From: an uncultured Nitrososphaerota archaeon
GTDB taxonomy: Archaea > Korarchaeota > Korarchaeia > Korarchaeales > Korarchaeaceae
DNA length: 64,000 nucleotides
Reading direction: 5' to 3'
NCBI GenBank assembly: GCA_964594835.1
Contig: CAZQNA010000008.1
Coordinates: 1-64,000 of the forward strand
Positions within the stretch are counted from its first letter, which is position 1, and each line of letters begins with the position of its first letter. A model generated the notes under the pieces. The model saw only the letters and a list, made by a program, of their open reading frames with translations. It made no database searches and was not told where the DNA came from. Of this stretch, positions 34,801 through 55,364 are shown piece after piece. Position numbers and translations under genes: made by a program.

Positions 34801-37800
34801 AGGCTGGGCCTCACATCGAGGTCGTCCAGCACGGGATCCTCTTTCAATCTCTGCCCTCAGAGGGCTCTGATTGCTTCCGCAAGAGAGGGAAGGAACGTGG
34901 ATAGTGTGCGACGGGATATCTTTCAATCTCTGCCCTCAGAGGGCTCTGATTGCTTCATGAAGGCCTGCCTGACCTGCCGACCAAGAGGCGTCTCCGCTCT
35001 TTCAATCTCTGCCCTCAGAGGGCTCTGATTGCTTCAAAACTTTCAGGAGCAGGGCCGCGTGGTGAAAGTTTCCTTTCAATCTCTGCCCTCAGAGGGCTCT
35101 GATTGCTTCGAGAGAGGATAATAGAAGTCTTAGATGAAGAGGGGCCCCTGACTGCAACTTTCAATCTCTGCCCTCAGAGGGCTCTGATTGCTTCCTCCGA
35201 TTTTCTTTTGAACCTCTGGCGCTCGGAGCTAAAGAGGCTCCCTTTCAATCTCTGCCCTCAGAGGGCTCTGATTGCTTCTCTTAGGGTTTCAGAGCTATAT
35301 GATCACTTAGTGGAATTTCAAAATCGCCTTTCAATCTCTGCCCTCAGAGGGCTCTGATTGCTTCGGCAGTCTGACAGGATATCTGACACGTAGTCTGACA
35401 ATCGAGAGCTTTCAATCTCTGCCCTCAGAGGGCTCTGATTGCTTCAAGGGTGGCGGCATCAAAGCAGCGGCGCGCATCCTCATAGTTATCAACTTTCAAT
35501 CTCTGCCCTCAGAGGGCTCTGATTGCTTCCTTGGACGCGACGAGAGTGCCATTGGGATCAACCGTAACCCCTTTCAATCTCTGCCCTCAGAGGGCTCTGA
35601 TTGCTTCAGGAAAGTTTGTTCATACGGGTGACTTGTTTGGGAGGGCCTTTCAATCTCTGCCCTCAGAGGGCTCTGATTGCTTCTTGGCGTCATAAGGACG
35701 TCTGATTGGATTTCTCCTAAGAGCTTTCAATCTCTGCCCTCAGAGGGCTCTGATTGCTTCGGCCGTCGGGTCGGTGTATGGGATCTTCCGGCCGGTTCTT
35801 TCAATCTCTGCCCTCAGAGGGCTCTGATTGCTTCGACTTGCTCTGGCTCTGCGTAGTGAACCGCGATCACGGCGGCGCACTTTCAATCTCTGCCCTCAGA
35901 GGGCTCTGATTGCTTCACCAAACGAGATACAGCCAGATCCCTCTGGAACTGAGCTGGCTTTCAATCTCTGCCCTCAGAGGGCTCTGATTGCTTCTGAAGT
36001 CTACGTTCAGACTGGCAGGGAGTGTGATGTCAGAATCCTTTCAATCTCTGCCCTCAGAGGGCTCTGATTGCTTCCACCACGCTCTACGAGGCGGTGTTTA
36101 ACGTCTCAGATGGCACTCTTTCAATCTCTGCCCTCAGAGGGCTCTGATTGCTTCGGCGGGCGGGCCGATCGACGTCGGCGCGCCGCACCCGGCTTTCAAT
36201 CTCTGCCCTCAGAGGGCTCTGATTGCTTCGCGTGATAGGTCCCGGTCCACTGCCCTGAAATCCTGAATGGATCCCCTTTCAATCTCTGCCCTCAGAGGGC
36301 TCTGATTGCTTCTGATACCATATATGAACTCATGCTACGTCACCAATAACTGGCTGACCTTTCAATCTCTGCCCTCAGAGGGCTCTGATTGCTTCCCATA
36401 ATTCTCAGGTTCACGGAGGACAGCGTCTCTAACAGCTTTCAATCTCTGCCCTCAGAGGGCTCTGATTGCTTCTGACACTGCCAACTATAGCTCGGTGCAG
36501 TTCAAGCTGCCGCTTTCAATCTCTGCCCTCAGAGGGCTCTGATTGCTTCTAGGCCTCACCCCACCAAGAACATTAGGAGGAGGGGATCTTTCAATCTCTG
36601 CCCTCAGAGGGCTCTGATTGCTTCATAGAGGAGAAGGGGTCCCCCGAGGAGGGTGGCCCAGAGGGTTTTCCTACTCTTTCAATCTCTGCCCTCAGAGGGC
36701 TCTGATTGCTTCCGTACGCCTTGTGCCACGACCCGGCGGGGATTGTCATCTTTCAATCTCTGCCCTCAGAGGGCTCTGATTGCTTCGAATTGCTCCCCAG
36801 TAATGCGATCCATCCAAGTGGAAGAGACGCCTTTCAATCTCTGCCCTCAGAGGGCTCTGATTGCTTCTGCTGACGCTTTACACCGCCAGCAACGAGATCT
36901 CAACGGACGCTTTCAATCTCTGCCCTCAGAGGGCTCTGATTGCTTCGGGGAGGTTTGGATCGATAAAAACCCGGTCGTCCCCGCCGTTTTCGCTTTCAAT
37001 CTCTGCCCTCAGAGGGCTCTGATTGCTTCCCGGTCGGTCAGGGGCGCGGCGACCACGTCGCCCGACCTGGTTTTCTTTCAATCTCTGCCCTCAGAGGGCT
37101 CTGATTGCTTCGGGGGCCCGGCCGTGGGGTGAGCGGTAAGCCCGCCCCCGCTTTCAATCTCTGCCCTCAGAGGGCTCTGATTGCTTCCTGACTGGGAGGC
37201 TGATGAGGCTTGACAGAGGAGCTCTACGTGATCGCTTTCAATCTCTGCCCTCAGAGGGCTCTGATTGCTTCCTCCTCATGCTCTCACCTCCTCTTGAAGC
37301 CTCCAAGTGCTGCGCTTTCAATCTCTGCCCTCAGAGGGCTCTGATTGCTTCAAGTTTCACAGAGCTCGTTAGGGTTGCCCTGCATGACTATCCTTTCAAT
37401 CTCTGCCCTCAGAGGGCTCTGATTGCTTCGTCATAGCAGCCTTCAGGACTGATAAGACCAACAGCATTCTATACCTTTCAATCTCTGCCCTCAGAGGGCT
37501 CTGATTGCTTCATCGTCAAGCCTCCTGCCATTGTCGTCTGAGGACCCCAGAGCACAGCTTTCAATCTCTGCCCTCAGAGGGCTCTGATTGCTTCGCTTAT
37601 CGCCCATTATCCGCCCATCGCTTGCCACGTCCACGATCACTTTCAATCTCTGCCCTCAGAGGGCTCTGATTGCTTCAGGGCAACGGCGAACCCAAATAGG
37701 GGCCCGCCGCCGCTCCCTTTCAATCTCTGCCCTCAGAGGGCTCTGATTGCTTCTCGGAACCAAGACCGGATACCTCGGCTTTAGGAGCAGCGGACTTTCA

Positions 37801-40800
37801 ATCTCTGCCCTCAGAGGGCTCTGATTGCTTCGAGCGCATTTTAATCAGGCTCCCACTCCATGAATCCAATCATCCTTTCAATCTCTGCCCTCAGAGGGCT
37901 CTGATTGCTTCAGGAAAGTCCGCTGGCACGGAGAGTATTACATCATAACGGATGCTTTCAATCTCTGCCCTCAGAGGGCTCTGATTGCTTCGACTTCACA
38001 ATTCAGGTCAGGAATTGGACGGACGCCGACGATCTTTCAATCTCTGCCCTCAGAGGGCTCTGATTGCTTCAGGGCCACGAAGGGCTTAGCCGTGGCGACC
38101 CTTGTGTCTTTCAATCTCTGCCCTCAGAGGGCTCTGATTGCTTCGAGAAGTATGGCCTGGAACGAATCTAATGTATCTCCCGCCTCTGCTTTCAATCTCT
38201 GCCCTCAGAGGGCTCTGATTGCTTCCTACTCGAACTCCGCGGGGAGCCTCCAGGTCACCTACCTCTTCACTTTCAATCTCTGCCCTCAGAGGGCTCTGAT
38301 TGCTTCGTTCATCAAGGCCGGGAGCTACGCTCCCACGATACTCCTCAGCTACCTTTCAATCTCTGCCCTCAGAGGGCTCTGATTGCTTCAATCAGGCTTA
38401 AAGTTAGGCTATATTGGCACAGCATAAGGTGCCCCGCACTTTCAATCTCTGCCCTCAGAGGGCTCTGATTGCTTCACAAGGGCAGGGAGTGGAATCAAGG
38501 TAGCGGGCCTCGGCCTCTTTCAATCTCTGCCCTCAGAGGGCTCTGATTGCTTCTTGTGCAGAGGCGGTTAATAGCCTCCTCCCTTCTTAACTTTCAATCT
38601 CTGCCCTCAGAGGGCTCTGATTGCTTCTATGCTAGAGAAAAACAGAGAGAATTGTTTGAGATGATACTCAACTTTCAATCTCTGCCCTCAGAGGGCTCTG
38701 ATTGCTTCGCTGGGTGGGTTAGCGTCCCCCCGGAGGGAGACGCCGAAGTCTCTTTCAATCTCTGCCCTCAGAGGGCTCTGATTGCTTCCGCGGCGGGGGG
38801 AAGTTGAAAGGAAGAAGAAAGAAAGTATCTTTCAATCTCTGCCCTCAGAGGGCTCTGATTGCTTCTGATGGAGCAGGAGTCAGAGAGGTTCAAGATCCTG
38901 CCCTACAAGCACCTTTCAATCTCTGCCCTCAGAGGGCTCTGATTGCTTCACCTGCACGCCATAGCTCACGAATATCAGGTTCAGCGTGCCGTCTTTCAAT
39001 CTCTGCCCTCAGAGGGCTCTGATTGCTTCGACAGTCGCAACGCGTTCCCAATTTTCTCCATGCTTGTTGGAATCTTTCAATCTCTGCCCTCAGAGGGCTC
39101 TGATTGCTTCGATCTTCAGGGAATAAGCCAGAAGGTAAACATAACCGTTGGAGAGGCTTTCAATCTCTGCCCTCAGAGGGCTCTGATTGCTTCGTCCTCG
39201 GGGTTCGTTATGGGGTTAACGCCCTGGATCACTTTCAATCTCTGCCCTCAGAGGGCTCTGATTGCTTCATTGCGACATTCTCGAGAACCCATGGATCCAC
39301 CCTCTCCCACCACTTTCAATCTCTGCCCTCAGAGGGCTCTGATTGCTTCCCAGATGCCCAAGACTGGAGGCCTGAAGGTGGGCGCTTTCAATCTCTGCCC
39401 TCAGAGGGCTCTGATTGCTTCGAGACCTTGTGGAAGAAAGATGGGAGATCATCAGAGCGCTGAATGCTTTCAATCTCTGCCCTCAGAGGGCTCTGATTGC
39501 TTCGCAGCCACCAGCGTGGATCTCCCGCCCAGGTCGATGCTTTCAATCTCTGCCCTCAGAGGGCTCTGATTGCTTCTTGGTAACGCTCGCCTTGGCTGAA
39601 GTTGGAAAACTCGCAGACTCCCCTTTCAATCTCTGCCCTCAGAGGGCTCTGATTGCTTCGGGAGCTCACGGACGGATCAGACGACGGGGAGCTCCCGCCC
39701 GCCGCCTCTTTCAATCTCTGCCCTCAGAGGGCTCTGATTGCTTCATTGGGTTAACGCCCTGATCGAGGGCGTTAACCCCATAACTTTCAATCTCTGCCCT
39801 CAGAGGGCTCTGATTGCTTCCCGTGAGCTCCCCGGCCTCTAATGGGGCCGGTCTTGTCCCCGATTCTTTCAATCTCTGCCCTCAGAGGGCTCTGATTGCT
39901 TCGCTGAAATGAAGAAAAGGGGGGAGGATATCGATATTGAGAGGATCACTTTCAATCTCTGCCCTCAGAGGGCTCTGATTGCTTCACAACACCAATTTAA
40001 AGATAAGGTATGAAAAATATTCTTTCAATCTCTGCCCTCAGAGGGCTCTGATTGCTTCTCGTCGCGGACCCAAAACCTAAAGACTGAGAAGGTGGGGGGC
40101 CACAATACTTTCAATCTCTGCCCTCAGAGGGCTCTGATTGCTTCAAGGTGTGGGGCGTGACCCTCTTCTGAATGCCCGCCCTTCTGGCTTTCAATCTCTG
40201 CCCTCAGAGGGCTCTGATTGCTTCGGGATGGTATAGGGCCGCGTTACCCCAACCTTCCCCAGATCCCACCCATCTTTCAATCTCTGCCCTCAGAGGGCTC
40301 TGATTGCTTCCAGCAGCGCGGCGATGGCTTGGAACTCCACCAGCGAGAGGTCTTTCAATCTCTGCCCTCAGAGGGCTCTGATTGCTTCGTCAAAGAGGTC
40401 TAGGACTCTGGATGCAAAGAGCAGGGCCACTTTCAATCTCTGCCCTCAGAGGGCTCTGATTGCTTCGTACAAGTTCCTCCCCTTCAAGATGATCTCGGGA
40501 ATCTTTCAATCTCTGCCCTCAGAGGGCTCTGATTGCTTCCTGGCTCATACTCGCCTACGTGAAATCGGGCGTAACCACGAGCGTAATCTTTCAATCTCTG
40601 CCCTCAGAGGGCTCTGATTGCTTCCTCGGGAATAGGCGAGCAGATTCTAGCATTCAAGGCGGAGGCGCACTACACTTTCAATCTCTGCCCTCAGAGGGCT
40701 CTGATTGCTTCGTTGTTCAGTATCAGCTGGAAGCTGTCCATGGTTGCGGCGCTTTCAATCTCTGCCCTCAGAGGGCTCTGATTGCTTCCTTTTTGCGTTA

Positions 40801-43800
40801 CTAAGGTGTTAGGAACGCAAAGGGCCCCTGTATCACTTTCAATCTCTGCCCTCAGAGGGCTCTGATTGCTTCTCCTCAAACGACAGCGCCCCCAGAGACC
40901 GAGAATAAGAGCCCTTTCAATCTCTGCCCTCAGAGGGCTCTGATTGCTTCGGGGCTAGCCCCCTGGGTCACGGTGAAGGAGGCGATCCTTTCAATCTCTG
41001 CCCTCAGAGGGCTCTGATTGCTTCTTCTTCTTAAGGGCCCTCTTTTTATTAGAGGAGGTAGAAGCTTTCAATCTCTGCCCTCAGAGGGCTCTGATTGCTT
41101 CCCGGGTGGGGGTGGTGGTGGTGGGCAGCGGGTGGGTCTTTCAATCTCTGCCCTCAGAGGGCTCTGATTGCTTCAACTATAATCTTCTTTCACATGCTTC
41201 ATTAACTGATCCTTATCCTCTTTCAATCTCTGCCCTCAGAGGGCTCTGATTGCTTCGGATCAAATTATGAATGTGACCAGAATATAAAAAGACTTAAAGA
41301 GATCCTAAACTTTCAATCTCTGCCCTCAGAGGGCTCTGATTGCTTCGCTGAGGATTGGGTGAGGAGGTTTGTTAAGATTAGGCGGCGCTTTCAATCTCTG
41401 CCCTCAGAGGGCTCTGATTGCTTCGCAGTAGGTGAGTCAGAAGAGAATCCCCAATCTATTCCCGCATAGGTCTTTCAATCTCTGCCCTCAGAGGGCTCTG
41501 ATTGCTTCTTCTCTTATAGGAGAAGAAAGCGGCTTTCCGGGAAATATTCTTTCAATCTCTGCCCTCAGAGGGCTCTGATTGCTTCGCCTTCGGGGATGAT
41601 CGCGATCGAGCGCGGCGCGCCCGCCACTTTCAATCTCTGCCCTCAGAGGGCTCTGATTGCTTCGCTCGACAAGCTTGAGGTCGAGAGGCCACCGACGCCC
41701 GACAAGATAACTTTCAATCTCTGCCCTCAGAGGGCTCTGATTGCTTCCTGTGCTGAGGTTCGCACCGCCACATGCATGTCCTAGTACGCGCACACTCTTT
41801 CAATCTCTGCCCTCAGAGGGCTCTGATTGCTTCATCGTCGCGATGTTCGCCGCCATGCTGATCGTGGCACTGGTGGCCTCTTTCAATCTCTGCCCTCAGA
41901 GGGCTCTGATTGCTTCTGGCTGGTGATAGTCGGGCTGAGTAGGGGCAACAAGTGGTACGACTTTCAATCTCTGCCCTCAGAGGGCTCTGATTGCTTCCTG
42001 TTCGGGGACCCAAGCAAGTTCCTCAAGCCCAGAAGTGAGACGCCTTTCAATCTCTGCCCTCAGAGGGCTCTGATTGCTTCCATGGCAGCGTCCTTCAGCT
42101 GACTAGCGGAGATCCTCAGCGTGAAGCTTTCAATCTCTGCCCTCAGAGGGCTCTGATTGCTTCGGCTGTGAGGATAAGATCACAATTAAGGCTGAGCGTG
42201 AGAGTCTTTCAATCTCTGCCCTCAGAGGGCTCTGATTGCTTCTGGCTGGCGTGACCCCGGAGGGGGGGATGAGTCAGAGCGCCTTTCAATCTCTGCCCTC
42301 AGAGGGCTCTGATTGCTTCGGATATCCAAGCAATGCAAGAGATCGTCAAAAGGGACATCGCTTTCAATCTCTGCCCTCAGAGGGCTCTGATTGCTTCCTG
42401 CGCGAGGCGCGCCTCAACCCAGGCCGGCAGCTGCGGCTCCTTTCAATCTCTGCCCTCAGAGGGCTCTGATTGCTTCGCGCTGTCGGCGGTGATAATAGTT
42501 CTCGGTTACCTCACTCACGACTTTCAATCTCTGCCCTCAGAGGGCTCTGATTGCTTCGGCCACCATCACCGAGTCATAGTCGGGCTCTGTTACGCGCGTA
42601 ACTACCGCTTTCAATCTCTGCCCTCAGAGGGCTCTGATTGCTTCCTTCTCCCCGCTTTTCAGCAGTAGATAGGTGCCATATACCATGCTTTCAATCTCTG
42701 CCCTCAGAGGGCTCTGATTGCTTCTAGCACTAGCTGGTGATGTGCTCGAGGCAAACTGGACCGACGCCTTTCAATCTCTGCCCTCAGAGGGCTCTGATTG
42801 CTTCGTCTGCAGACACCCAGGGCGGCGCTTCAACTATCTGCAGCGTAACCTTCTCTCTTTCAATCTCTGCCCTCAGAGGGCTCTGATTGCTTCGTGATCC
42901 GGGAGATCAGCTTAGTGTCAGTCTCCCCCTTTCAATCTCTGCCCTCAGAGGGCTCTGATTGCTTCCAGGCTTATGTCGCGGCCAGAGTACAGAGTCGTGG
43001 CTTTCAATCTCTGCCCTCAGAGGGCTCTGATTGCTTCAAGGAACAGGGTGAACTCGATATTGAACGGATAGCCGAAACGTTCTTTCAATCTCTGCCCTCA
43101 GAGGGCTCTGATTGCTTCTGTTCCTTGACTAGGCTAGCGATCTCTGTTAGACGGCCTCCTCTCTTTCAATCTCTGCCCTCAGAGGGCTCTGATTGCTTCT
43201 GAACAAAATGTGGTTGTGGAAGATTTTCGAAAAGAAGGTCGCTATCTTTCAATCTCTGCCCTCAGAGGGCTCTGATTGCTTCCATTCAGAGCCTTCACTC
43301 CCGTGTCTACAAAGCGGCCCGAGACTTTCAATCTCTGCCCTCAGAGGGCTCTGATTGCTTCGGATGGGGTTCCGACCTATCTAATATCTCTGGGACGGCT
43401 CTCTTTCAATCTCTGCCCTCAGAGGGCTCTGATTGCTTCGAAGATGGCGAGGCAATCATATTTTGGAGCAAGTACGCAGATGACTTTCAATCTCTGCCCT
43501 CAGAGGGCTCTGATTGCTTCTCTTCATGTTCGACGCCGGCCCCGACGGGCAACGCGTTGAGGATGGCTTTCAATCTCTGCCCTCAGAGGGCTCTGATTGC
43601 TTCAATGTGGAGGAGCCGGTATTGCGCGCATTATGAAGAGGTAAACTTTCAATCTCTGCCCTCAGAGGGCTCTGATTGCTTCGAGGAGACCGGCCCGGTC
43701 GGGCTGGAGCAATACTTCTGAGGTGGCTTTCAATCTCTGCCCTCAGAGGGCTCTGATTGCTTCCTTCGCGCGGCACTCAGGGCAAAGGAGCTGATCAGGG

Positions 43801-45039
43801 AGCCGGAGGAGACCTTTCAATCTCTGCCCTCAGAGGGCTCTGATTGCTTCGAAGAGGATCACGCGAAGCTCAGAGTCGGAGTGTTCAGGACGTATCCTTT
43901 CAATCTCTGCCCTCAGAGGGCTCTGATTGCTTCTAGTCACAGGTGATTCGGGAATCGTTGCCGTCCAGAGAGGACCTGATCTTTCAATCTCTGCCCTCAG
44001 AGGGCTCTGATTGCTTCGGGCCCCACCTCGTTCTGAGGAGGGTCTTGCTGTGGATCTTTCAATCTCTGCCCTCAGAGGGCTCTGATTGCTTCTTATTGCT
44101 CATTTTGAATCCCTCCAAAAAGACCGCCGGAGAGTTTACTTTCAATCTCTGCCCTCAGAGGGCTCTGATTGCTTCCTATTTCGACAATGAGGCTGACTGC
44201 TCCTCATGGGTTAACTTTCAATCTCTGCCCTCAGAGGGCTCTGATTGCTTCGTGAGGGTGGTCTTATGCCGAAGAAGGCGAAGAAGAAGTCGCCTTTCAA
44301 TCTCTGCCCTCAGAGGGCTCTGATTGCTTCATGGCGGAAATTCTTGACGGGTTTGTGAGGTGATTTATGACTTTCAATCTCTGCCCTCAGAGGGCTCTGA
44401 TTGCTTCTCCTCAAGGAGTTCGGCGTCAAGATCCCGAACCTCGGCTACGTCATCCCTTTCAATCTCTGCCCTCAGAGGGCTCTGATTGCTTCATGCGGGG
44501 CCTCGCCGAGAGATGGTGCAGGCTGAGGGGCTTTCAATCTCTGCCCTCAGAGGGCTCTGATTGCTTCCCGAGTACTGGCTCGAGTATAGCGGATACGTCT
44601 CGTCCGCTTTCAATCTCTGCCCTCAGAGGGCTCTGATTGCTTCGGCTTGTCTTCAGGGTGATATGATGGCCGCGCAGGCTCAGACCGCTTTCAATCTCTG
44701 CCCTCAGAGGGCTCTGATTGCTTCATCCGGGCACGAAGGTGACGGACGTGAAGGAAGTCAGGGTCGCTTTCAATCTCTGCCCTCAGAGGGCTCTGATTGC
44801 TTCATAGGGTACACCCCGCCATCAATCTCTCCAGATGAGATGTACCTCTTTCAATCTCTGCCCTCAGAGGGCTCTGATTGCTTCTTTTTTGAACCCCTAT
44901 ATCACACACGTTAACTGATTGGCGATACTTTCAATCTCTGCCCTCAGAGGGCTCTGATTGCTTCGTCTCACCTCCTAACTCTTTTTTGTGGCCGGCAAAA
45001 AACTTTCAATCTCTGCCCTCAGAGGGCTCTGATTGCTTC
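28818..45039 (-). CRISPR. CRISPR array 1, about 205-210 repeats (estimated from the ~78-nt period); repeat GAAGCAATCAGAGCCCTCTGAGGGCAGAGATTGAAAG (37 nt)
   Basis: Near-invariant 37-nt repeats with mostly unique spacers. The ATTGAAAG 3' handle and the leader at 45040+ give minus orientation; internal GCCCT-CTG-AGGGC hairpin. Confidence 0.99.
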
Positions 45040-45149
45040 CCCCATCCTTACCTTCTTAGGAGGGCCCCCGACCTCCACCAGGCCGCCCCGTTTTCGGGCG
45101 CGCCGCGCTGATCGGGGTCTCCACCGTCGCCTTATAAGGATCAGCGCCC
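45040..45149 (-). promoter_or_regulatory. CRISPR leader of array 1
   Basis: 110 nt, near-identical (2 mismatches by eye) inverted copy of 51773-51882; TTATAA box at 45132-45137. Confidence 0.9.
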
Positions 45150-45192: not shown

Positions 45193-45732
45193 TCACACCC
45201 CTCTGCAGGCGAGAAAATGTTCACACACTGCACACTTGCCCCTGTTGGGTGTTGGGGGAGGCATGTACTCCTCCTCCAAGATCTTCCTTATTTCCTCCAG
45301 CGTCCTCAGGACCTCACGCCTCAGCCTCCTCAGAGAGCTGATTCTCACCAGCCCCAACCCTCCAGGATAGTAAAGGAATCCCTCCCGCACCTCGACATCG
45401 AAGTTCTCCTCAACCAACATGGCGTATGCGGCCAGTTGAACCCTGTGAGACCTAGCCGGAGAGGCGAACTTCACCTCCAGTGGATATGCTCTCTCTCCGC
45501 AGTGGAGGAGCCCGTCAAGCCTGCCCCAGAGCCCGAGCCGCTCCGACTTCAGGATCACGTCCCTCTCCACCCTGCAGCCTCTAAGAGGAACGAGCCGGAT
45601 GGCCTCTCGCACGGCCCTGTCCTGCCTCTCCTTCCCCCTCCTCATCAGGGGAGTCTCAACTCCCCCCATCCTGAGAACCCGTCTCCAGTAGATTATGCGG
45701 GGGCAGTAGAGGTACTGCCTGATGTCGGACAC
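45193..45732 (-). CDS. cas4: CRISPR-associated exonuclease Cas4
   Basis: QYLYCPR, GRLDGL, PLEVK, QLAAYA, KCAVCEHFLAC Fe-S cysteines. Confidence 0.95.
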   Translation of the reverse strand: MSDIRQYLYCPRIIYWRRVLRMGGVETPLMRRGKERQDRAVREAIRLVPLRGCRVERDVILKSERLGLWGRLDGLLHCGERAYPLEVKFASPARSHRVQLAAYAMLVEENFDVEVREGFLYYPGGLGLVRISSLRRLRREVLRTLEEIRKILEEEYMPPPTPNRGKCAVCEHFLACRGV

Positions 45733-45820
45733 CGCTATCGTGGAGCATCACCCGGAGGTCTGCCCGGTGGGTGAGTGCGCCCAGCTCTGCGTCTGGGGGA
45801 TTCTCTGCCGGAGGCGGCCC

Positions 45821-46117
45821 TTACACCACGACGTATCCAGGCCCCCCGTACTCCGGATCGGGGTCGAAGCCCTCCACCCTCCCTATCCTCATGGTCATGC
45901 CGTAGAGGCGCCGATCCATGACGTAGATCCTGACCGCCCCCTCTCTGCCCTTCATGATCTCCGACAGCTCGTAGAAGAGCGAGAGCCTCTGACTCTTCGA
46001 CAGTATCCCGGCGAACGCGCTCCTCTGGATGTGTCTGAGTCCGTAGTCCTTGCACCTCTTCTCCACGGCCCTCCTGACCCCGTCGTCGCTTATGTCGTAG
46101 ACCACGAGCGTCATCAA
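45821..46117 (-). CDS. cas2: Cas2
   Basis: LVVYDISDD..R..CKDYGLRHIQRSAFAG. Confidence 0.96.
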   Translation of the reverse strand: MMTLVVYDISDDGVRRAVEKRCKDYGLRHIQRSAFAGILSKSQRLSLFYELSEIMKGREGAVRIYVMDRRLYGMTMRIGRVEGFDPDPEYGGPGYVVV

Positions 46118-46123
46118 GCTGGG

Positions 46124-47146
46124 TCACCCCCTCCACCTCCAGGGGTCGTAGGACGGTGAGTCCCCCCTCACGTACGTGGCTATGGCCCTCGCCTGACCCA
46201 GAATGACGTCCTTGAGCCTCCAGCTCTCGCCCCTGTAATCCACGCGAGACTCCAGCGCCTCCAGGACCCTCTCGACGACGAGCCTCCTCCCCCGACCCCT
46301 CAAGTAAACTCCCTCGCCCCTCCTGGTGAAGTCCCCCTCATGGTCCAGCACCCTCTTCGTGAACAGGGGGATCACGGGCCTGTGGGATGCGTAGACGAGG
46401 AACTCCTCCGCCAGGTCAAGCGAGATGCTGGTCCTGCCGGACCTGTCGGCGTGGAGGTAGCCGGAGAACGGATCCAGGCCAGCCATGACGGCCGCCCTGA
46501 AGGCCTCCGAGTACACGAAGGAGTTGGCGAAGCTGATGGCCGCGTTGAACGGATCTTTGGGCGGCCTCCTTGTCCTGACTCCCCTGTAACCGTACTCGGG
46601 CGGGACCACCAGGCTCAGGGCCCTGAAGTACTCCTCTGCGGCCCTCCCCTCCACCCCCATTATCCTCGATCTGACCTCGTCCAGGCGGCCCGATATGCCA
46701 GACAGCTCCCTCAGGTGCTCCCTCACCCTGTTCGCGGCGTCCATCAGCCTGAGCTTGACGGCGCCCTCCCGGTTCCTCGCCAGCCTGGACAGCATGACGG
46801 CCCTGGAGTCTATGGCGGCCCTCGCGAAGGCCTTGGCGAACTCAACCCCCCTCTCATCGTCGTACGCCCTCAGCTGCTCCCTCCTCGTCCTGGAGGTCCC
46901 GCCGTAAGTTGCCGGCAGGACCAGGGCCGTGGGCTCCCCCCGGAGGGACGTGACGGTCACGGCTATCCCCCTTGCCGCCGCGCGGGAGAGCAGGTCCGTG
47001 GTTATCGAGGCCCCCTCGCACACCACCAGGCACTCGATCTGATCTAGAGGTATCTCCTCGCGCCTCCCTGAGGAGAAGAAGACCAGCCTCTCCCCCTCAA
47101 CCCTCAGCCTCACGCCGGGGGTGTCCACGACTACGGCCTTCCTCAA
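46124..47146 (-). CDS. cas1: Cas1 integrase
   Basis: MGVEGRAAEEYF, RTRRPPKDPFNAAISF, GLDPFSGYLH, LDLAEEF. Confidence 0.97.
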   Translation of the reverse strand: MRKAVVVDTPGVRLRVEGERLVFFSSGRREEIPLDQIECLVVCEGASITTDLLSRAAARGIAVTVTSLRGEPTALVLPATYGGTSRTRREQLRAYDDERGVEFAKAFARAAIDSRAVMLSRLARNREGAVKLRLMDAANRVREHLRELSGISGRLDEVRSRIMGVEGRAAEEYFRALSLVVPPEYGYRGVRTRRPPKDPFNAAISFANSFVYSEAFRAAVMAGLDPFSGYLHADRSGRTSISLDLAEEFLVYASHRPVIPLFTKRVLDHEGDFTRRGEGVYLRGRGRRLVVERVLEALESRVDYRGESWRLKDVILGQARAIATYVRGDSPSYDPWRWRG

Positions 47147-48525
47147 GCGCCACCACCCAGCAGGTACACCCTGTACCCTCCCCTCCTCTTCCTCCTCTGC
47201 ACGAGCCCCTCGCGCTCCAGGGCCAGAATAGCCCGCTCGTAGAGGGGCGGGGGGAGCTTGACCTTTCTCTTGAGCTCAGACTGCGTGAGACTTCCGAAGC
47301 CGGAGAGGGCCTCGAGCACCTTCCTCTTGGCGTGCGCCTCGTCAAGTATCGGCTCTATGGCCCGCCTCCTGCGACGCGCCCTCTTCCTGGCGGCTCTCAC
47401 CTCGGACTTGGCCTCCTCTTCCCTCTCAGCCTCCTGCCTGGCCACCTCCCTGACGAGGTCTCCGTCCACGTTCCTGAACCCCCTCTCAAGCCCCTCGGCC
47501 AGGCTGACGCTGGCCAGCCTCAGGGCCGACCTCGGAATCCCGCGAGAGATCTCCGCAATCGCGGAGAGGGCCTCGTCCGTGAACGGGTAGCTGTCCTCAA
47601 CCATTCCGGACGCCTCGGAGGTCCTGAACGCCCTGAGGTACCGCCTTATCATCTCCCGGATCTCGCCTTCCCTCAGGGGGCCGAGCACGAGGACGTCCCA
47701 GGCTCCCCAGAGGCGGCTCTCGAGGGCCGGGTTCAGGGCGGCTATCCCGAACTCCACGTCGCTCAGGACAGCCTCACTGGCCGAGAAGACCAGGAGGGCG
47801 CCCTCCGGCAGCTTGTCGATCAGCTGCCTCATGTCGGAGTAGAAGGAGGCCACCTGATCCCTCGTGGAGGCCGAGAGCGCCTCGTCCAGCTCGTCCACCA
47901 GTATCAGGAGCTTCCTCCCGAGCACGCTCCAGATCACGTCCACCAGGGCGGAGAGCGCGTCCACCGCCGAGTGGTCGTCCAGGTTCATCACAATCTTCAG
48001 CCTCCTCAGCTCCGCGCGGCCCAGCTGGTCACCCTGAAGCCACGCGAGGGCCGAGGTGTCCCCGGACGCGATGCCCCGCAGAGCCGCCGTCAGGTCGGGC
48101 ATCCGCGCCAGCCTGCCTGGCGGACTCCTGAGCGCGGCCCTGGCGAGGTCCCTGAGGAAGTCCCTCCCGAGCTGAGAGTCGAGGCACTTCACCACCTCGG
48201 AGAGGAGGCTCAGCATGCTCGCCGACCTGAGCCCCTTCACGTAGACGGGTATCACGCCGTCGTACCTCCTCCTCGCGGCGTGCTCGAGGTACTTCAGCGC
48301 GTGGGTCTTGCCCATCCCGTACCTGCCCACCAGCAGGAGGACCGCCGAACCCTCACCCTCCCTCAGGCTCACGAGCCTCCTATCCAGCTCCCTCTTGAGG
48401 TCGTCCCTTCCGACTAGGATCGAGGAGTACCTGTCCTCATCCGGGTCGCCCACCGGAAAGGACCCGTGGTGCGGGAAGGGATTCTTCCTCAGGCCGTACC
48501 TCTCGTAGCCTCCGGACGCACTCAT
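47143..48525 (-). CDS. P-loop AAA+ ATPase with C-terminal winged helix
   Basis: YGLRKNPF, Walker A GRYGMGKT, Walker B LILVDELD, ALESRL (Arg finger), SRGIPRSAL (sensor 2), C-terminal wHTH; 4-bp overlap with cas1. Confidence 0.85.
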   Translation of the reverse strand: MSASGGYERYGLRKNPFPHHGSFPVGDPDEDRYSSILVGRDDLKRELDRRLVSLREGEGSAVLLLVGRYGMGKTHALKYLEHAARRRYDGVIPVYVKGLRSASMLSLLSEVVKCLDSQLGRDFLRDLARAALRSPPGRLARMPDLTAALRGIASGDTSALAWLQGDQLGRAELRRLKIVMNLDDHSAVDALSALVDVIWSVLGRKLLILVDELDEALSASTRDQVASFYSDMRQLIDKLPEGALLVFSASEAVLSDVEFGIAALNPALESRLWGAWDVLVLGPLREGEIREMIRRYLRAFRTSEASGMVEDSYPFTDEALSAIAEISRGIPRSALRLASVSLAEGLERGFRNVDGDLVREVARQEAEREEEAKSEVRAARKRARRRRRAIEPILDEAHAKRKVLEALSGFGSLTQSELKRKVKLPPPLYERAILALEREGLVQRRKRRGGYRVYLLGGGA

Positions 48526-49256
48526 CTTCCACCCCCCCAGATTGAGAGGAAGTACAGGAGGCGCCCCCTCTCGTCCCTGATCGCGTCTCTCACAACGGTC
48601 CTGCTCCAGGCGGGCGCGGGGCTCAGCATGGCGCCCGGGATTGCCTCCACCGCCTCGAGTACCAGCGCGTCGAAGGCCTCCCTGCTCAGTCCCCTTCTGC
48701 TCATCTCTTCCCTCATCCTGGTGAGCGACACGGGCTCTCCCAGCACGTGTGTGACCCCCCTATACGCCTCCTCCAGGGCCTTCGCCAGCGCGGCAATGGC
48801 CCCGGCCTCGGTGACCCTCACGACCCTTGACGACCTGGAGACCAGCCCCAGGTCCTCGGCCAGCCTCACTACGTACGTTGCCCTCTTCTCCCGAGTCGAC
48901 TTCCTCCCCCTGCGGTAGAGCGCCCTCGCGATCTCCGGAACGGTGGAGGGGGTCGTGAGCGAGATCCACAGGACCCGGAACACCTCCGGGTGAGAGATGG
49001 CCGCCTCCCCTATGGACCCGGACCCCGCGTCCACGTAGAGGTACCTGCCCGACCTCCTCACCCGTCTGACCAGTCCAAGGGACCTGAGGCCGGCCAGCGC
49101 GGCCTGAACCTTCCTCCTGGGAGCCTTCAGGGTCTCCGAGATCTCCCCGCAGGTCCCACCCCGCCCCCGGGATCCGAGCTCCCGGGCGACCGCCTCGAGT
49201 ACCCCAAGGCCGGGGTAGCTGTACGAAGGCATGGGCCTCACGCGACGTTCAGCCAC
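48522..49256 (-). CDS. Tandem winged-helix DNA-binding protein
   Basis: GTCGEISETLKAPRRKVQAALAGLRSLGLVRR and STVPEIARAL..LAEDLGLVSR..VTEAG. Confidence 0.65.
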   Translation of the reverse strand: MAERRVRPMPSYSYPGLGVLEAVARELGSRGRGGTCGEISETLKAPRRKVQAALAGLRSLGLVRRVRRSGRYLYVDAGSGSIGEAAISHPEVFRVLWISLTTPSTVPEIARALYRRGRKSTREKRATYVVRLAEDLGLVSRSSRVVRVTEAGAIAALAKALEEAYRGVTHVLGEPVSLTRMREEMSRRGLSREAFDALVLEAVEAIPGAMLSPAPAWSRTVVRDAIRDERGRLLYFLSIWGGGR

Positions 49257-50616
49257 CTCCCAACGCCTCCCTCGTCACCGCCGAGATGGCCCGGTGAGCC
49301 CTCCCAGCCGCCCCACCCGCGCGAAGCGAGTAACCCAGCTCGCCCAGCTCCACGAGGCCCACCAGCGGCCCAGACAGTTCGTTGAGGATGCGCTCGACTC
49401 CCTGAGCGTTGACCTCCGCGCCTCTTTCGAGCAGGATGGACAGGATCTCCTCGGCCCGCAGGGCCCCAGCCTCCCTCAAGATCCGGAGAACGGCGGAGCG
49501 GAGCCCCAGCTCGGCCTCCCACCCGGAGATCCGAAGCCTGATGATCTCCCATGGGTCCCCCTCCGCCAGCTCGCCGGGCCTGATCCTGGCCAGGTTCAGG
49601 GGGAGGGCCCTGAGGAACGCCGCACTCAGGACATCGCAAACCTGGTCCCAGGTCAGAACGGCAACGCCCTCCCTCCTCCCCCTGGACACCACCTCGGCCG
49701 ACGCCGAGGTCGCGACGAGCCAGGCCCCCCACTCCACCCCTGCCCCCGACTTGGAGAGCCTCCCCGTCCTCCTGTACTCGTCCAAGTAATCCCTCGCCTG
49801 CTCTACTGAGGTCAGGTCCGCCCTCTCGTTCTTCAGCTCGAACAGAGTCCACATCGGGGCCATCGCGACGATGTCCGGCCTGCCCGGCCCCATGGACCTC
49901 TCGCGGTCTATCAGACATCCAGCGGCCTCGAGCAGGTCCATGAGGCCGAGGTTGAGCTCTCCCTCCGGTGCGCCCTCCCTGGCCATCCTCCTCAGACTCT
50001 CCACGGCATCTGCGAGCCTCTCGGGCCACACAAACGAGGCGGACCTTGCGAGCTCCCGCGCCGCCGACTCGAGGGCCGACTCCAGCGCCATCATCCTGGA
50101 CTCGGCCTCGAGTGCAGAGTCCGGATTCTCAGCCCAGCTGACGAACTCCCCGAAGCTGAGGCCCGACGCCTTGAGGGACTCCTCCAGTGGGCGTAACGAC
50201 TCCGCGCTTCCGACCCTCTCCATCCTGGAGAGTATGTAGACCACAAGGCCCCCGCCCTCCCGCGCCTCCTTGACGACCGAGAGAGATGCGTCCCAGCAGA
50301 TCAGGGCCGCGGATCCCCCTTCCGTCGACCTGAGCCAGGCCAGGAGCGGGCTCGCCGAGGCCTGGTCCACCCTGCCCCCGTCAAGCACAACCCTCAGGGA
50401 GGCTCCCGGCAGACGGGCGGTGAGGGAGTCGCCGACCATTGAGGAGCGGTGTCCGTCGGCCCTCAGGGCCCTTCCCAACCTTTGGAGGGCGGCCCTGGCG
50501 CGTGATATCCTGTCCTCCCTCAGCCGCTGGATTATCGCCTCTCCCGCAAAGACTCCCAGATATTTGCGGGAGGATGAGGCGGCCCCGGGCACGCCTATAT
50601 GATCGCCGACAGCCAT
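49249..50616 (-). CDS. PD-(D/E)XK (Mrr/NucS-like) endonuclease with C-terminal wHTH
   Basis: GRPDIVA..LFELK..SVEQARDY catalytic pattern; C-terminal VLRILREAGALRAEEI..VERILNELSGPLVGLV. Confidence 0.7.
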   Translation of the reverse strand: MAVGDHIGVPGAASSSRKYLGVFAGEAIIQRLREDRISRARAALQRLGRALRADGHRSSMVGDSLTARLPGASLRVVLDGGRVDQASASPLLAWLRSTEGGSAALICWDASLSVVKEAREGGGLVVYILSRMERVGSAESLRPLEESLKASGLSFGEFVSWAENPDSALEAESRMMALESALESAARELARSASFVWPERLADAVESLRRMAREGAPEGELNLGLMDLLEAAGCLIDRERSMGPGRPDIVAMAPMWTLFELKNERADLTSVEQARDYLDEYRRTGRLSKSGAGVEWGAWLVATSASAEVVSRGRREGVAVLTWDQVCDVLSAAFLRALPLNLARIRPGELAEGDPWEIIRLRISGWEAELGLRSAVLRILREAGALRAEEILSILLERGAEVNAQGVERILNELSGPLVGLVELGELGYSLRAGGAAGRAHRAISAVTREALGGG

Positions 50617-50897: not shown

Positions 50898-51725
50898 TTG
50901 CCCGCTATCGTCACCGCGTACCTGTATCCCTCCACGACCCTGATGTATGAGGTCCCCTCCTCGGGAAGGATTGCACAGTCAGCGCTGTTCTCGGCCCTCA
51001 AGGCGTCTGACCCGTCCGTGGCCTCGGGCCTGCATCGCCTATCCGCAAAGCTGAGGCTCGGCACGCCCTACTCGGTCAGCAGGATCACGACGGCCGCGAG
51101 GTACGTGAAGGGGGTGACGGCCGTGGTCCCAGCCGGAGATCACGTTCGCCTCACGGTTAAGCTCCTGAGGGATGAGCTCGTGGATCCCTACGTCAGGGGG
51201 CTGTTCAACTCCCCACTGAAGATCAACGGGGTGCCCGTGGAGGTGGCGGAGGTCAAGGTGGGCAGGGTGAGCTACGAGGACCTGCTCACGGGGAGCCCCG
51301 TCGTCCCAGGGGTCAGGCTCAGGCTGATGACCCAGACGATCCTCGAAGGAGAGGAGTTCCCCCCTCCCCTATGGGAGGTCCTGCAGAGGCCCATCGCGGC
51401 CTGGAACGCCAACGCCCCGGATCACCTGAGGTTGGGGGATCCCCAGCTGGAGGGGGTGTGGCTGGCGCAGCCCACCTCACCGTCCTGGCTGGAGAGCGGG
51501 GCCGTTAAGGTGTGGTACGGGGCGGAGCCCGTCGTGAGGGTCGGCTACACGGGGGTCCTGAGCTACTCCCTGCGATCCCTGAGCACGTTCCACGGCAGGG
51601 TGGTCTCGGCCCTCCTGAGGTTTGCGGAGTTCAGCGGGATTGGCAAGAGGACCACCGTGGGATTTGGGGTAGTGAAGGTCTCGTTTTGGAGGAAGAGGTC
51701 CAGGAGAGGGCGTAAGTCTGCATGA
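50898..51725 (+). CDS. cas6: Cas6 endoribonuclease
   Basis: PYSVS, LRLMTQT, GYTGVLSY, C-terminal G-loop FAEFSGIGKRTTVGFG. Confidence 0.9.
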   Translation: MPAIVTAYLYPSTTLMYEVPSSGRIAQSALFSALKASDPSVASGLHRLSAKLRLGTPYSVSRITTAARYVKGVTAVVPAGDHVRLTVKLLRDELVDPYVRGLFNSPLKINGVPVEVAEVKVGRVSYEDLLTGSPVVPGVRLRLMTQTILEGEEFPPPLWEVLQRPIAAWNANAPDHLRLGDPQLEGVWLAQPTSPSWLESGAVKVWYGAEPVVRVGYTGVLSYSLRSLSTFHGRVVSALLRFAEFSGIGKRTTVGFGVVKVSFWRKRSRRGRKSA

Positions 51726-51772: not shown

Positions 51773-51882
51773 GGGCGCTGATCATTATAAGGCGACGGTG
51801 GAGACCCCGATCAGCGCGGCGCGCCCGAAAACGGGGCGGCCTGGTGGAGGTCGGGGGCCCTCCTAAGAAGGTAAGGATGGGA
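51773..51882 (+). promoter_or_regulatory. CRISPR leader of arrays 2 and 3
   Basis: Inverted copy of 45040-45149; TTATAA at 51786-51791; abuts the first repeat. Confidence 0.9.
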
Positions 51883-52450
51883 GAAGCAATCAGAGATGTC
51901 GTACCACTTGTTGCCCCGTACTTGTACATCTGGAGCAAGAGACGCTCGTCATCTTCTTCGAAGCAATCAGAGATGTCGTACCACTTGTTGCCCCGTTCTT
52001 CTATGATACCGCCGCCGAATATGCCAGGAAGCAGAGAAGCAATCAGAGATGTCGTACCACTTGTTGCCCAGCCCCAAATGGGGAAACAACTGACGTAAGG
52101 TAGGTAGATATCGAGAAGCAATCAGAGATGTCGTACCACTTGTTGCCCCGGAAATGAACGCCTTGTTTCTGCGGGCCTTTGGTATCTGAGAAGCAATCAG
52201 AGATGTCGTACCACTTGTTGCCCCTCGTCGGCTTCAACTACTATGTCCACCCTCTTACGAGAGAAGCAATCAGAGATGTCGTACCACTTGTTGCCCCCCG
52301 GTTACGGAGATGGCTTACAGGACGTTCAACAGGTGAAGAAGCAATCAGAGATGTCGTACCACTTGTTGCCCCCTCCAGAGCTTCATCTGGGAATGGTCGC
52401 ATCTTAACTCCATGAGAAGCAATCAGAGATGTCGTACCACTTGTTGCCCC
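51883..52450 (+). CRISPR. CRISPR array 2 with non-canonical chimeric repeat GAAGCAATCAGAGATGTCGTACCACTTGTTGCCC(C), 8 copies and 7 spacers
   Basis: Repeat starts at 51883, 51960, 52036, 52115, 52190, 52263, 52338 and 52416, separated by unique ~38-45 nt spacers. Confidence 0.95.
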
Positions 52451-52473
52451 TACTCAGCCCGACTATCACCAGC

Positions 52474-52580
52474 TCCTAAGAAGGTAAGGATGGGAGAAGC
52501 AATCAGAGATGGTCGAGTTCACCATTACCGTGAACAACAAGACCCTCCTAAGAAGGTAAGGATGGGAGAAGCAATCAGAG
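52474..52580 (+). repeat. Two extra copies of the leader 3' end plus repeat 5' end (target-site-duplication-like)
   Basis: TCCTAAGAAGGTAAGGATGGGA-GAAGCAATCAGAG at 52474-52508 and (CCC-extended) 52543-52580, identical to the leader/repeat junction 51858-51895. Confidence 0.92.
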
Positions 52581-55274
52581 CCCTCTGAGGGCAGAGATTG
52601 AAACTTCCCAGACCATTCCTCATTTTATTGCTTCTTTTCACATGTGAAGCAATCAGAGCCCTCTGAGGGCAGAGATTGAAAGATTGGACACTTGAACACC
52701 GTGTAGATCGCCTCACGGTCCCGTATGAAGCAATCAGAGCCCTCTGAGGGCAGAGATTGAAACCTGGGGAGCCAGCTGGGCCTATCGGCGGTGGCGGCCA
52801 TGAGAAGCAATCAGAGCCCTCTGAGGGCAGAGATTGAAACCACAACCTTGGTGGCCACGAACTTGTAGCCCGCAGCGTTCCTCTTCGAAGCAATCAGAGC
52901 CCTCTGAGGGCAGAGATTGAAACAATCCATCGTCTACTATATCATAAGAATCCTTAAGACTCTCAAGGAAGCAATCAGAGCCCTCTGAGGGCAGAGATTG
53001 AAACGATGAGGAGGGGTGAGCATGGGTAAGACAAGGGGTAAGTCGTGGAGAGGAGAAGCAATCAGAGCCCTCTGAGGGCAGAGATTGAAACGGTCGGGGT
53101 TCTGGTCGGGCCTAAGCAGGGGATAGAGAGCGAAGCAATCAGAGCCCTCTGAGGGCAGAGATTGAAACTCGCCAGTCTCCTCTCCCACCTCTCTCCCAAG
53201 TATAGGAGAAGCAATCAGAGCCCTCTGAGGGCAGAGATTGAAACGAAATGCGTCTCGTGGACGGTCATGCTCCCACCCTCGGGGCGAAGCAATCAGAGCC
53301 CTCTGAGGGCAGAGATTGAAACTACAACAACAACCCACTTTGCGGCAACAGCCTCCGGTGGGTTGTTCGAAGCAATCAGAGCCCTCTGAGGGCAGAGATT
53401 GAAACATTTAAAATTCAACACAGGATACGATTAACGTAAATGTTCTAGAAGCAATCAGAGCCCTCTGAGGGCAGAGATTGAAACCAGGGCAAACATGTTC
53501 CACGTCTTCATGTATCTTTCGTTTGATTCGAAGCAATCAGAGCCCTCTGAGGGCAGAGATTGAAACCAGTAGTTTATGCCCTCCTGCAACACCACGTTCT
53601 TTGGGCCAAGAAGCAATCAGAGCCCTCTGAGGGCAGAGATTGAAACGACGGAGGATCTCGGGGTTCGGATTTTGGATCTTAACCCGAAGCAATCAGAGCC
53701 CTCTGAGGGCAGAGATTGAAACTATCCAGAGGTAAACGCTGTGGCTGTAGGTGGTGTCGGTGTTGAAGCAATCAGAGCCCTCTGAGGGCAGAGATTGAAA
53801 CTTAAGGCTTCCCAAGTGTTGTAATGAATCCGGATCAGTTTGGTCGAAGCAATCAGAGCCCTCTGAGGGCAGAGATTGAAACCGCTCGGTCACCGAGGTT
53901 CCTTAACTACACCACCGTCATAGACCTCGAAGCAATCAGAGCCCTCTGAGGGCAGAGATTGAAACCGTTTCCCCTCAGGGTGTTCTGGCAAAAACGTTAC
54001 TGAAGCAATCAGAGCCCTCTGAGGGCAGAGATTGAAACCGGCCCGAGATTATCAGCCCCCTCCCGGGGTGGCTCTCGAAGCAATCAGAGCCCTCTGAGGG
54101 CAGAGATTGAAACTGATGGCCTGGATCGAGATCGACGAGGATCAGCTGGAACACTGAAGCAATCAGAGCCCTCTGAGGGCAGAGATTGAAACCACTCCAG
54201 CTCCACCTCTATCAGCAGCTTGATCCCGGTCGCGAAGCAATCAGAGCCCTCTGAGGGCAGAGATTGAAACAAGTTCAAGAAGCTGACCCTCACTCAAATC
54301 CGTGATGCTTACAGAGAAGCAATCAGAGCCCTCTGAGGGCAGAGATTGAAACGTGAGGGGCACCAACTCATATTACTTTGCTTGGCTGCCCAAGAAGCAA
54401 TCAGAGCCCTCTGAGGGCAGAGATTGAAACAACAGCCTAACTGTGGCCTTCATTCCGGCTTGGGGAGCATGGGAAGCAATCAGAGCCCTCTGAGGGCAGA
54501 GATTGAAACTGAGACCGAGATAGGCGCTCTTAGAACCAATTGCAATGAAGCAATCAGAGCCCTCTGAGGGCAGAGATTGAAACGAAACTTTCAGGACTCG
54601 TCCCTTTCGGCGGAAACTTTCGGAAGCAATCAGAGCCCTCTGAGGGCAGAGATTGAAACCTTCCGAGCGGTTATAACGCAGGTGAAGAAAGATCCTAATG
54701 GAAGCAATCAGAGCCCTCTGAGGGCAGAGATTGAAACTCCTCCTCGGCAAAACGCTTGATTTCCTCGGCTATGTCGAAGCAATCAGAGCCCTCTGAGGGC
54801 AGAGATTGAAAGGTCGTGGCCCTCCGGGACGAAAACGGCGATGAAGGGATACGTGAAGCAATCAGAGCCCTCTGAGGGCAGAGATTGAAAGAATCGATCA
54901 AGAGCGTAAGGATGGTGGCGCTGATGAGAAGCAATCAGAGCCCTCTGAGGGCAGAGATTGAAAGGAGCGAGTGAACTCTAGCACAGCAATGTAAGCTGGC
55001 CTGGAAGCAATCAGAGCCCTCTGAGGGCAGAGATTGAAAGTCGGTGAACCCGCCAGGCACTTCATATCCCACAGTGCTGGGTGAAGCAATCAGAGCCCTC
55101 TGAGGGCAGAGATTGAAAGTGGCTTGCGGGCGATTCTCGTCCCAAATTAGGCCGGACGAAGCAATCAGAGCCCTCTGAGGGCAGAGATTGAAAGTCGCGC
55201 GCGAGATTGAAAGTTCGTGGTGAATGGCTCCTATTACTGGAACTTGGGGCTGGAAGAAGGAAGCAATCCGAGCC
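52568..55274 (+). CRISPR. CRISPR array 3, 34 full canonical repeats (ending ATTGAAAC or ATTGAAAG) plus degenerate tail
   Basis: Repeats 52568-55194; partial repeat GAGATTGAAAG at 55203-55213 and degenerate GAAGCAATCCGAGCC at 55260-55274. Confidence 0.98.
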
Positions 55275-55364
55275 TCGCGCGGCTCGGCGTTTGGAGGCTC
55301 GTTACAGGTCGTTTCACCAAGTTCCGTATATTCCCAGGAGGCGGAGGCGCTCCGGGGGTCAAGG

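Follow-up and report, generated by a model that had tools for sequence, protein, structure and literature searches.

A natural CRISPR array whose repeat joins the start of the canonical repeat to the 5' part of a spacer

We describe a natural CRISPR array of eight repeats and seven spacers (array 2; 51883-52450, forward strand) in which every repeat consists of the first 13 nucleotides of the canonical repeat followed by sequence that is also present as a spacer in another array of the same genome. We explain this structure by the action of the Cas1-Cas2 integrase and of a length ruler, a reading to which we assign a probability of about three in four: two integrations out of register at the leader-repeat junction would have generated the hybrid sequence, and seven further ones would have propagated it as a repeat. 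A second array of this kind, with the same breakpoint and an unrelated tail, is present in a species of the same genus. The initial annotation of this DNA, which proposed that a new repeat had arisen from a captured spacer, is partly supported, being right in its core and proposing a simpler mechanism than the one that emerges here.

The array is part of a large CRISPR-Cas locus within a 64-kb window, which is the whole stretch of DNA that was analysed. The genome is a 1.82-Mb draft of 24 contigs, and the host is a vent microbe. Array 1 (28818-45039, reverse strand) comprises 203 canonical 37-nt repeats ending in G and one internally deleted repeat, with its leader-proximal end at 45039. Its leader (45040-45149, reverse strand) faces the adaptation genes cas4, cas2 and cas1 (45193-47146, reverse strand), namely cas4 at 45193-45732 (match 2.2e-37), cas2 at 45821-46117 (Pfam match at 45905-46114, 3.8e-15) and, adjacent to cas2, the sole cas1 of the genome at 46124-47146 (match 2.2e-67), all three on the reverse strand. 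A BrxD-like ATPase gene and two unassigned genes lie between cas1 and cas6 (50898-51725, forward strand), the latter scoring 35.5 bits against Pfam CRISPR_Cas6 (cut-off 25) and falling under the NCBIfam cut-off. After cas6 comes the leader of arrays 2 and 3 (51773-51882, forward strand), which shares 99% identity with the array-1 leader and has a conserved TTATAA-containing core about 100 nt upstream of the repeat. Array 3 (52568-55194, forward strand) contains 34 canonical repeats, of which no. 2 and nos. 29-34 have G at position 37 and the others (1 and 3-28) have C. Array 1 and arrays 2/3 are thus inverted relative to each other with nearly the same leaders, and one Cas1-Cas2(-Cas4) module would serve both. 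Among the five leaders compared, the last base (-1) is A in the leader of arrays 2/3 and G in the four others, that of array 1 included; from the sequence, this G-to-A change is possibly a cause of poor and imprecise use of the leader of arrays 2/3. The type III-B effector genes cmr4, cmr1-like, cmr6, cas10/cmr2 and cmr3-like occupy 20746-28584 (forward strand). Spacers of arrays 1 and 3 range from 35 to 53 nt. A search of Rfam returned no family at gathering score anywhere in the window, the canonical repeat included.

As first defined, the chimeric repeat of array 2 is a 35-nt unit made up of canonical nt 1-13, the trinucleotide ATG and a 19-nt tail. This composition, already recognized in the initial annotation, holds for all eight copies, which start at 51883, 51960, 52036, 52115, 52190, 52263, 52338 and 52416 (spacings of 77, 76, 79, 75, 73, 75 and 78 nt); position 35 is A instead of C in the copy at 52036 only. 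The seven spacers are all unique and measure 38-44 nt, inside the range of arrays 1 and 3. Array 2 therefore has the constant-length direct repeats and the unique spacers of system-typical length that define a CRISPR array; cas1 and cas2 are present, and the array is polarized with respect to its leader, in that the parent spacer continues only in the copy farthest from it. The 18-nt repeat tail occurs genome-wide in the eight array-2 copies and in one array-1 spacer, and in no other place. A 30-mer taken from the chimeric repeat had no exact match in a metagenome collection or in a collection of 185,579 species genomes, both of which may lack near-identical records, and the repeat is absent from the 35 other genomes of the family, in line with the earlier expectation that it would belong to no known family; in the genomes and metagenomes scanned, we likewise found no instance of the same repeat arrayed elsewhere, with or without cas genes of its own, which had been named as a finding that would refute the proposal. 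A phrase search of the literature, a weak negative with supplements outside its scope, found no description of a chimeric or hybrid CRISPR repeat.

The repeat tail corresponds to the first 19 nt of a spacer, Y (52432-52473, forward strand), the rest of which (52451-52472/3) survives only behind the oldest chimeric copy. Direct comparison of 52432-52475 with the reverse complement of 41917-41960, a 44-nt spacer on the reverse strand that is no. 39 from the leader of array 1, confirmed the previously noted match: 42 of the 44 positions agree, and both spacers face the same way with respect to the repeat and have a common 5' start at the spacer's first base. At the sequence level, an identity of 42 nt is far beyond chance. 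The two positions that disagree are the final ones and fall exactly at the start of the second copy of the duplicated unit described below; the array-1 spacer consequently carries bases that are missing from locus 2, and, to judge by these bases, it cannot be derived from the present locus without two adjacent changes. Spacer no. 166 of array 1 (31786-31827, reverse strand, 42 nt) likewise has a twin outside array 1, the canonical spacer that comes first in array 3 (52605-52645, 41 nt), relative to which it has just a single additional 3' base. Both inter-array pairs thus show a common 5' start and a ragged 3' end, and the three duplicate pairs within array 1 are of equal length in each pair. 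We read the inter-array twins as probable independent acquisitions from the same protospacers. If the members of each twin pair were acquired in the same episode, array 1 would have gained 126 spacers between them and the array-2/3 locus only two, Y and the insert X described below; the later gains would then amount to 38 in array 1 and seven in array 2.

A viral protospacer had been expected for the 3' half of the chimeric repeat, and none was detected: a 23-mer over the boundary between repeat tail and the rest of Y had no match in viral, metagenome or genome contigs, a 27-mer of X had none in viral contigs, and a distant-mode search of arrays 1 and 2 against a phage collection gave no spacer match. 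A foreign origin of Y and X is therefore assumed only. Of the earlier proposal that invader DNA became the distal half of the repeat, what stands is that this half is the 5' part of a spacer held by array 1; the invader itself is presumed. The only spacer with a genomic match, no. 61 of array 1, corresponds to a host gene in C7, G001 and G004. It departs from each of them in its first five bases and yields no acquisition motif.

The region also carries a nested duplication. A 36-nt unit composed of 23 nt of leader tail and repeat nt 1-13 is present in three copies on the forward strand (51860-51895, 52473-52508 and 52545-52580) and nowhere else in the genome; the leader part comprises the last 23-25 nt of the leader, and the last 13 nt of the third copy open the first intact canonical repeat (52568-52604), into which that copy continues. 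Copies 1 and 2 are each followed by ATG, and the insert at 52509 begins with this ATG, as the initial annotation had pointed out. This insert, X (52509-52544, forward strand), is spacer-sized and genome-unique, with a length of 34-36 nt depending on the assignment of a terminal C run. Without the seven later insertions, the three copies would be spaced by 44 nt, of which ATG makes up three and Y 41, and by 36 nt (X). The arrangement, in which three copies of a duplicated unit of 36-39 nt enclose inserts of 44 and 36 nt, is that of a neo-CRISPR; the site, which straddles the leader-repeat junction of array 3, is not one unrelated to any CRISPR locus. The triplicated leader tail and nt 1-13 bears the footprint expected of two integrations displaced into the leader by about 24 nt, so that two such events, not the single capture originally envisaged, would have preceded the chimera. 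Since the copy upstream of Y also has the first three bases of X, X was inserted before Y.

The ATG allows two readings. The second event may have cut after nt 16, thereby duplicating 38-39 nt and copying the ATG from X; alternatively, the same site may have been used twice, with 35-36 nt duplicated and both inserts beginning with ATG as untrimmed flank. Under the latter reading Y including ATG measures 44 nt, the length of its array-1 twin, at an offset of 3 nt. No acquisition motif can be derived given that protospacers are lacking, and both readings stand; under neither is the off-register unit exactly 37 nt long. The unit's own ends show an inverted match of 4/13, and the idea that the leader end acts as a degenerate "repeat zero" was rejected, the best leader-repeat match being 15/37. 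With unit ends matching so little and a leader unlike the repeat, the shift of the cuts by about 24 nt is unexplained by sequence. We also considered an upside-down docking of the integrase, with the bottom-strand G run before nt 13/14 as a mock leader end, and discarded it, Y being oriented as its array-1 twin. Such docking would account for the -24/+13 positions with a 37-nt ruler.

The register of the seven later insertions can be read from the spacer ends. GA, the dinucleotide in which the leader ends, is also the end of five of the seven array-2 spacers, as compared with 17/236 in arrays 1 and 3 (Fisher p=7.2e-5); the other two end differently. This excess indicates that the unit copied in five of the seven events extends from leader position -2 to +35 and is 37 nt long, equal to the canonical repeat. 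The earlier view that the chimera was duplicated seven times while new spacers were added thus fits the seven unique spacer-sized inserts toward the leader, and needs correction as to the unit mostly copied. The canonical length was kept after replacement of the distal part, in 5/7 events here and in 6/6 in the sister species. The canonical repeat has imperfect 13-nt inverted ends (7/13 in array 3, 6/13 in array 1), and when the oldest chimeric copy is compared with the inverse of nt 1-13, end position 35 gives the single best match, with 8/13; among other spacers placed likewise, 16/236 reach at least 8 in a 7-position window. For nt 1-13 followed by X, the arrangement after the first event, the best inverted match is 5, and the next integration (that of Y) was again off-register. 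We infer that a rigid spacing of about 37 nt joins both cuts and that the inverted end which Y happened to provide pulled the distal cut to +35, by which the proximal cut would have been drawn to -2. The captured spacer mimics the distal inverted end exactly at the cut, and for the present locus the notion that only 13 nt of the repeat are needed goes too far.

A family-wide search of 36 genomes for the repeat start followed by a non-canonical base found such arrays in this genome and in G004 only. G004 is a species of the same genus with canonical arrays (94 intact repeats in the stretch examined), and its orphan array (C1:107599-108094) has seven repeats of 37 nt, composed of the same nt 1-13(14) and an unrelated 24(23)-nt tail. 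Homology between the tails of the two species was rejected, as 560 of 2000 shuffles reach the observed score. The leader of the G004 chimeric array is a paralogue of another G004 leader, and the array lies between an HTH gene and an ABC transporter, where the present genome has about 120 nt and no array. The G004 array, at a different locus and with a tail unrelated to that of array 2, is an independent case. Its register is canonical (0 to +37), and the inverted match at the distal cut at 37 is 1/13, which argues that an inverted mimic is not required in general. With up to three mismatches allowed, the tail has no second occurrence in G004. G004 and G001, a genome in which we found no CRISPR repeats, share 94% identity from about 42 nt past the oldest nt 1-13 onward, and the tail, within the first 30-42 nt, may be either a captured spacer or local DNA. 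Alignment gave no support for a degenerate leader kept in G001 at the orthologous place. Both genomes of the genus with this CRISPR type (G000, the present one, and G004) therefore have a chimeric array with the same breakpoint, which coincides with the 5' base of the central palindrome of the repeat (nt 13-25). The contention that the leader and the proximal ~13 nt suffice for integration gains from G004, in which a leader with 13-14 nt seeded a new 37-nt repeat, and is weakened by the mimic at the cut in the present locus.

According to the scheme that we favour, X and then Y would have been integrated about 23-25 nt out of register at the cas6-side array. Staggered cuts would have been made on the top strand in the leader near -24 and on the bottom strand just after nt 13 (possibly nt 16 for Y), and gap repair would then have duplicated the leader tail and nt 1-13 (36-39 nt) in place of the repeat. 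After the insertion of Y, the first ~37 nt behind the true leader would have been nt 1-13, ATG and the start of Y, and seven further integrations in near-normal register would have copied this hybrid stretch as a repeat, mostly from -2 to +35, the distal cut falling where Y by chance inverts the first 13 nt of the repeat. Tentatively, this scheme might be extended to a general rule, possible though rather doubtful at present, whereby the integrase of this genus needs only the leader and a 13-nt proximal half-site, with a recurrent secondary cut after nt 13, and whatever DNA lies behind the half-site, measured at 37 nt, becomes repeat; this would be a general route to distal-half swaps and new repeat types. 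If so, spacer DNA here and other sequence in the sister species became repeat tail, and adaptation precedes, and is uncoupled from, crRNA function.

In systems with Cas6 and in type III systems, crRNA maturation relies on a repeat hairpin and a conserved 3' end, the last 8 nt of the repeat becoming the 5' tag of the crRNA. For RNA of the canonical repeat, a hairpin of two tiers with -12.0 kcal/mol is predicted in either species; the two versions differ in the loop only. The two chimeric repeats are predicted to fold at -4.5 and -3.7 kcal/mol and are missing the canonical last 8 nt; in predicted fold and in sequence, the chimeric repeat thus has neither the hairpin nor the 3' tag of a functional crRNA repeat. 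With both lost, crRNA function of the chimeric repeat is doubtful, and array-2 transcripts would probably not be matured into usable crRNAs. On these predictions we expect array 2 to be adaptation-competent and not interference-competent. To speak of a new repeat family, as was done at first, overshoots accordingly, as adaptation alone is evidenced.

Since the genome is a 24-contig draft and short contigs are the sole check on its assembly, the structure might be an artefact of a repeat-rich region. We compared it with contigs of four public runs, three of them from one sample, possibly the source (X1, X2 and X4), and one from another study (X3). Within the block these contigs reach at most 126 nt, with spacers 3, 4, 6 and 7, the overall spacer order and any plain leader-array allele in the population outside their reach; all contig pieces align to the region with 0 differences. 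They bridge the true leader and the chimeric repeat (51785-51910, X4), repeat 2, its spacer and repeat 3 (51960-52069; X1, X2 and X3), repeat 5, its spacer and repeat 6 (52188-52290, X4), the last repeat together with the rest of Y and the second unit copy (52421-52502, X2), and the second unit copy, X and the third (52473-52572; X1, X2 and X3). With every diagnostic junction bridged without a difference in runs of two studies, and with an ordered structure in which the parent sequence occurs in the oldest copy only, we regard an artefact as extremely improbable. The direction of transfer might be the reverse of the one proposed, the repeat tail being of other origin and the array-1 spacer 41917-41960 being self-derived from 52432-52475. 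The 42-nt identity would be explained equally, no outside protospacer was found, and an ATG acting as acquisition motif would account for the common 5' start. However, the last two bases of the array-1 spacer differ exactly where the duplicated leader tail starts, the donor would need to be the oldest one of eight copies, and the second twin pair (31786-31827/52605-52645) also has a ragged 3' end, unlike the equal-length duplicates internal to array 1; self-derivation thus seems quite unlikely to us.

Another possibility is that replication slippage or microhomology-mediated repair produced the triplication and that the integrase made only the seven later insertions. GCCCTC occurs both at leader positions -26 to -21 and at repeat positions 13-18, which places the outer limits of the first duplication in direct microhomology, and a CAGAG-to-CAGAG slip deletion is seen in array 1 (31361-31381). 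Slippage, however, gives tandem copies without intervening DNA, and here two different unique spacer-sized inserts separate them, one of which recurs, in normal orientation, among the spacers of the same system; a spacer-sized insert between target duplications of about 37 nt is, in the portions of the literature available, the signature of an integrase. This alternative we hold to be unlikely. The block could also have been imported by recombination, as a mini-array of a virus or plasmid or through exchange with array 1. Repeats and leaders are common to the arrays, making exchange mechanically possible, and the chimeric array of G004 interrupts an intergenic stretch that holds no array in the present genome. 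Yet all three leader-tail copies have the -1 A of their own leader and not the array-1 G, none of the viral-independent collections scanned (metagenome and species genomes) contains the chimeric repeat, and a full canonical repeat is missing before Y, unlike in an exchanged repeat-spacer unit, which leaves import with very little to recommend it. Integration by the system's own integrase remains our preferred explanation of the locus.

The rules by which Cas1-Cas2 places its cuts have so far come from engineered repeats of a few model systems, and the present locus offers a multi-step natural record in which two register slips were followed by seven faithful rounds, of canonical length, on a half-foreign sequence. 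In an archaeal-style, Cas4-containing and type III-associated module, it makes testable which 13 nt suffice, the 37-nt ruler, the pull of the inverted-end mimic and a possible role of leader base -1. It also shows that arrays can go on gaining spacers that are probably unusable, which bears on the origin of new repeat types and of orphan arrays.

Several elements of this record have precedents. In the available portions of studies on the I-B system of Haloarcula hispanica (PMC4872114) and the I-E system of E. coli (PMC5039180), rulers and not the distal sequence set the repeat length, and shifts of 1-3 nt occur. As in array 2, the repeat is delimited by one cut on the leader side and a second, distal one whose position is set by distance, and the distal sequence is replaceable. 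The discussion of PMC4872114, in the portion available, mentions a new repeat with two additional leader bases and two fewer distal bases in a non-cognate E. coli set-up, a product that resembles the array-2 unit of -2 to +35. Those repeats, as presented there, are laboratory mutants of type I systems followed over one round, whereas array 2 arose naturally, with type III-B genes, over seven; and their anchors are mid-repeat motifs, whereas in array 2 everything past nt 13, over half of the repeat, has been replaced by a spacer. Off-target integration in E. coli seeds neo-CRISPRs (Nivala et al. 2018, as cited in 10.1101/148544 and PMC6698737). As far as these citing texts describe them, neo-CRISPRs have in common with the present locus a spacer-sized insert within repeat-length target duplications, at a non-canonical site able to become a repeat; they differ in stemming from over-expressed E. 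coli Cas1-Cas2 and targets elsewhere, whereas here the leader-repeat junction was the target, the array grew from the true leader and the repeat is a hybrid. Ectopic acquisition within arrays of Streptococcus thermophilus, as reported in the accessible parts of PMC7999890 and PMC5338259, likewise involves an insertion site other than the leader-proximal repeat; there another intact repeat is hit and its sequence is unchanged, whereas here the repeat was altered. For Cas1-Cas2 of Pyrococcus furiosus in vitro, the available sections of PMC6698737 report that both cuts are positioned by elements distributed across about 30 bp and by the distances between them, that either border can be attacked first and that off-target sites are repeat-like; that work, as presented there, is biochemical, uses canonical or block-mutated repeats and involves no natural propagation of a hybrid, whereas array 2 is a natural record. 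Ruler-defined duplication, tolerance of the distal sequence, spacing-dependent choice of site and off-target seeding of neo-CRISPRs are thus already known; what is new here is a natural record over multiple rounds in which a spacer became half a repeat, with two register slips kept and an independent parallel in a sister species.

In array 3, the plus-strand canonical array of 34 repeats at 52568-55194, repeat 2 and the six oldest repeats have G at position 37, where every other repeat has C; array-1 repeats carry G at this position throughout. It follows that the leader-proximal repeat underwent a single change here, which was then propagated. At the distal end of array 3 (55195-55300, plus strand) lies a partial repeat consisting of the last 11 nt, immediately preceded by 8 nt of GC-rich sequence and followed, approximately 70 nt further on, by a strongly degenerate terminal repeat.

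In array 1, the minus-strand canonical array at 28818-45039, one repeat (31361-31381, minus strand) measures only 21 nt and lacks nt 14-29, a slip deletion from one of the repeat's two CAGAG motifs to the other. The array also contains exact spacer duplicates, on the same strand: spacers 178 and 179, numbered from the leader end, are copies of 176 and 177, forming a two-unit tandem duplication (30843-31071), and spacer 194 is identical to spacer 195 (29564-29640). For spacer 61 (40139-40181, minus strand) there is a match in a chromosomal gene that the genus has conserved, at C7:13216-13262 in the window's own genome and, in the sister genomes, at C1:16065-16111 (G004) and C3:1461-1507 (G001). 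The spacer's identity is 94% to the sister genomes versus 89% to its own genome. Because its first five bases differ from those of all three genomic matches, it probably derives in truth from a diverged copy on another element.

Relative to the window's genome, G004 carries an insertion of about 1.3 kb (C1:107372-108692, or 9373-10693 of the stretch L012; window counterpart 10129-10249) that comprises an orphan leader, the array of chimeric repeats and some 600 nt more, the latter also present in G001 in a different context. Outside any array, solitary matches to the first 12-13 nt of the repeat occur in two other genomes of comparison, at positions 274 and 1456 of L015 (G003 C62) and, on the minus strand, at 1501 of L016 (G045 C41). 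The match at L015:1456 also retains part of the repeat's central palindrome and may be a decayed repeat.

Three genes separate cas1 from cas6 (47143-50616, minus strand). NCBIfam and Pfam scans returned no cas family match for any of them. One product is a BrxD-like AAA ATPase bearing a winged helix at its C-terminus, another is a small HTH protein resembling TrmB, and the third is a protein of 455 aa in which one stretch weakly resembles NucS-C.
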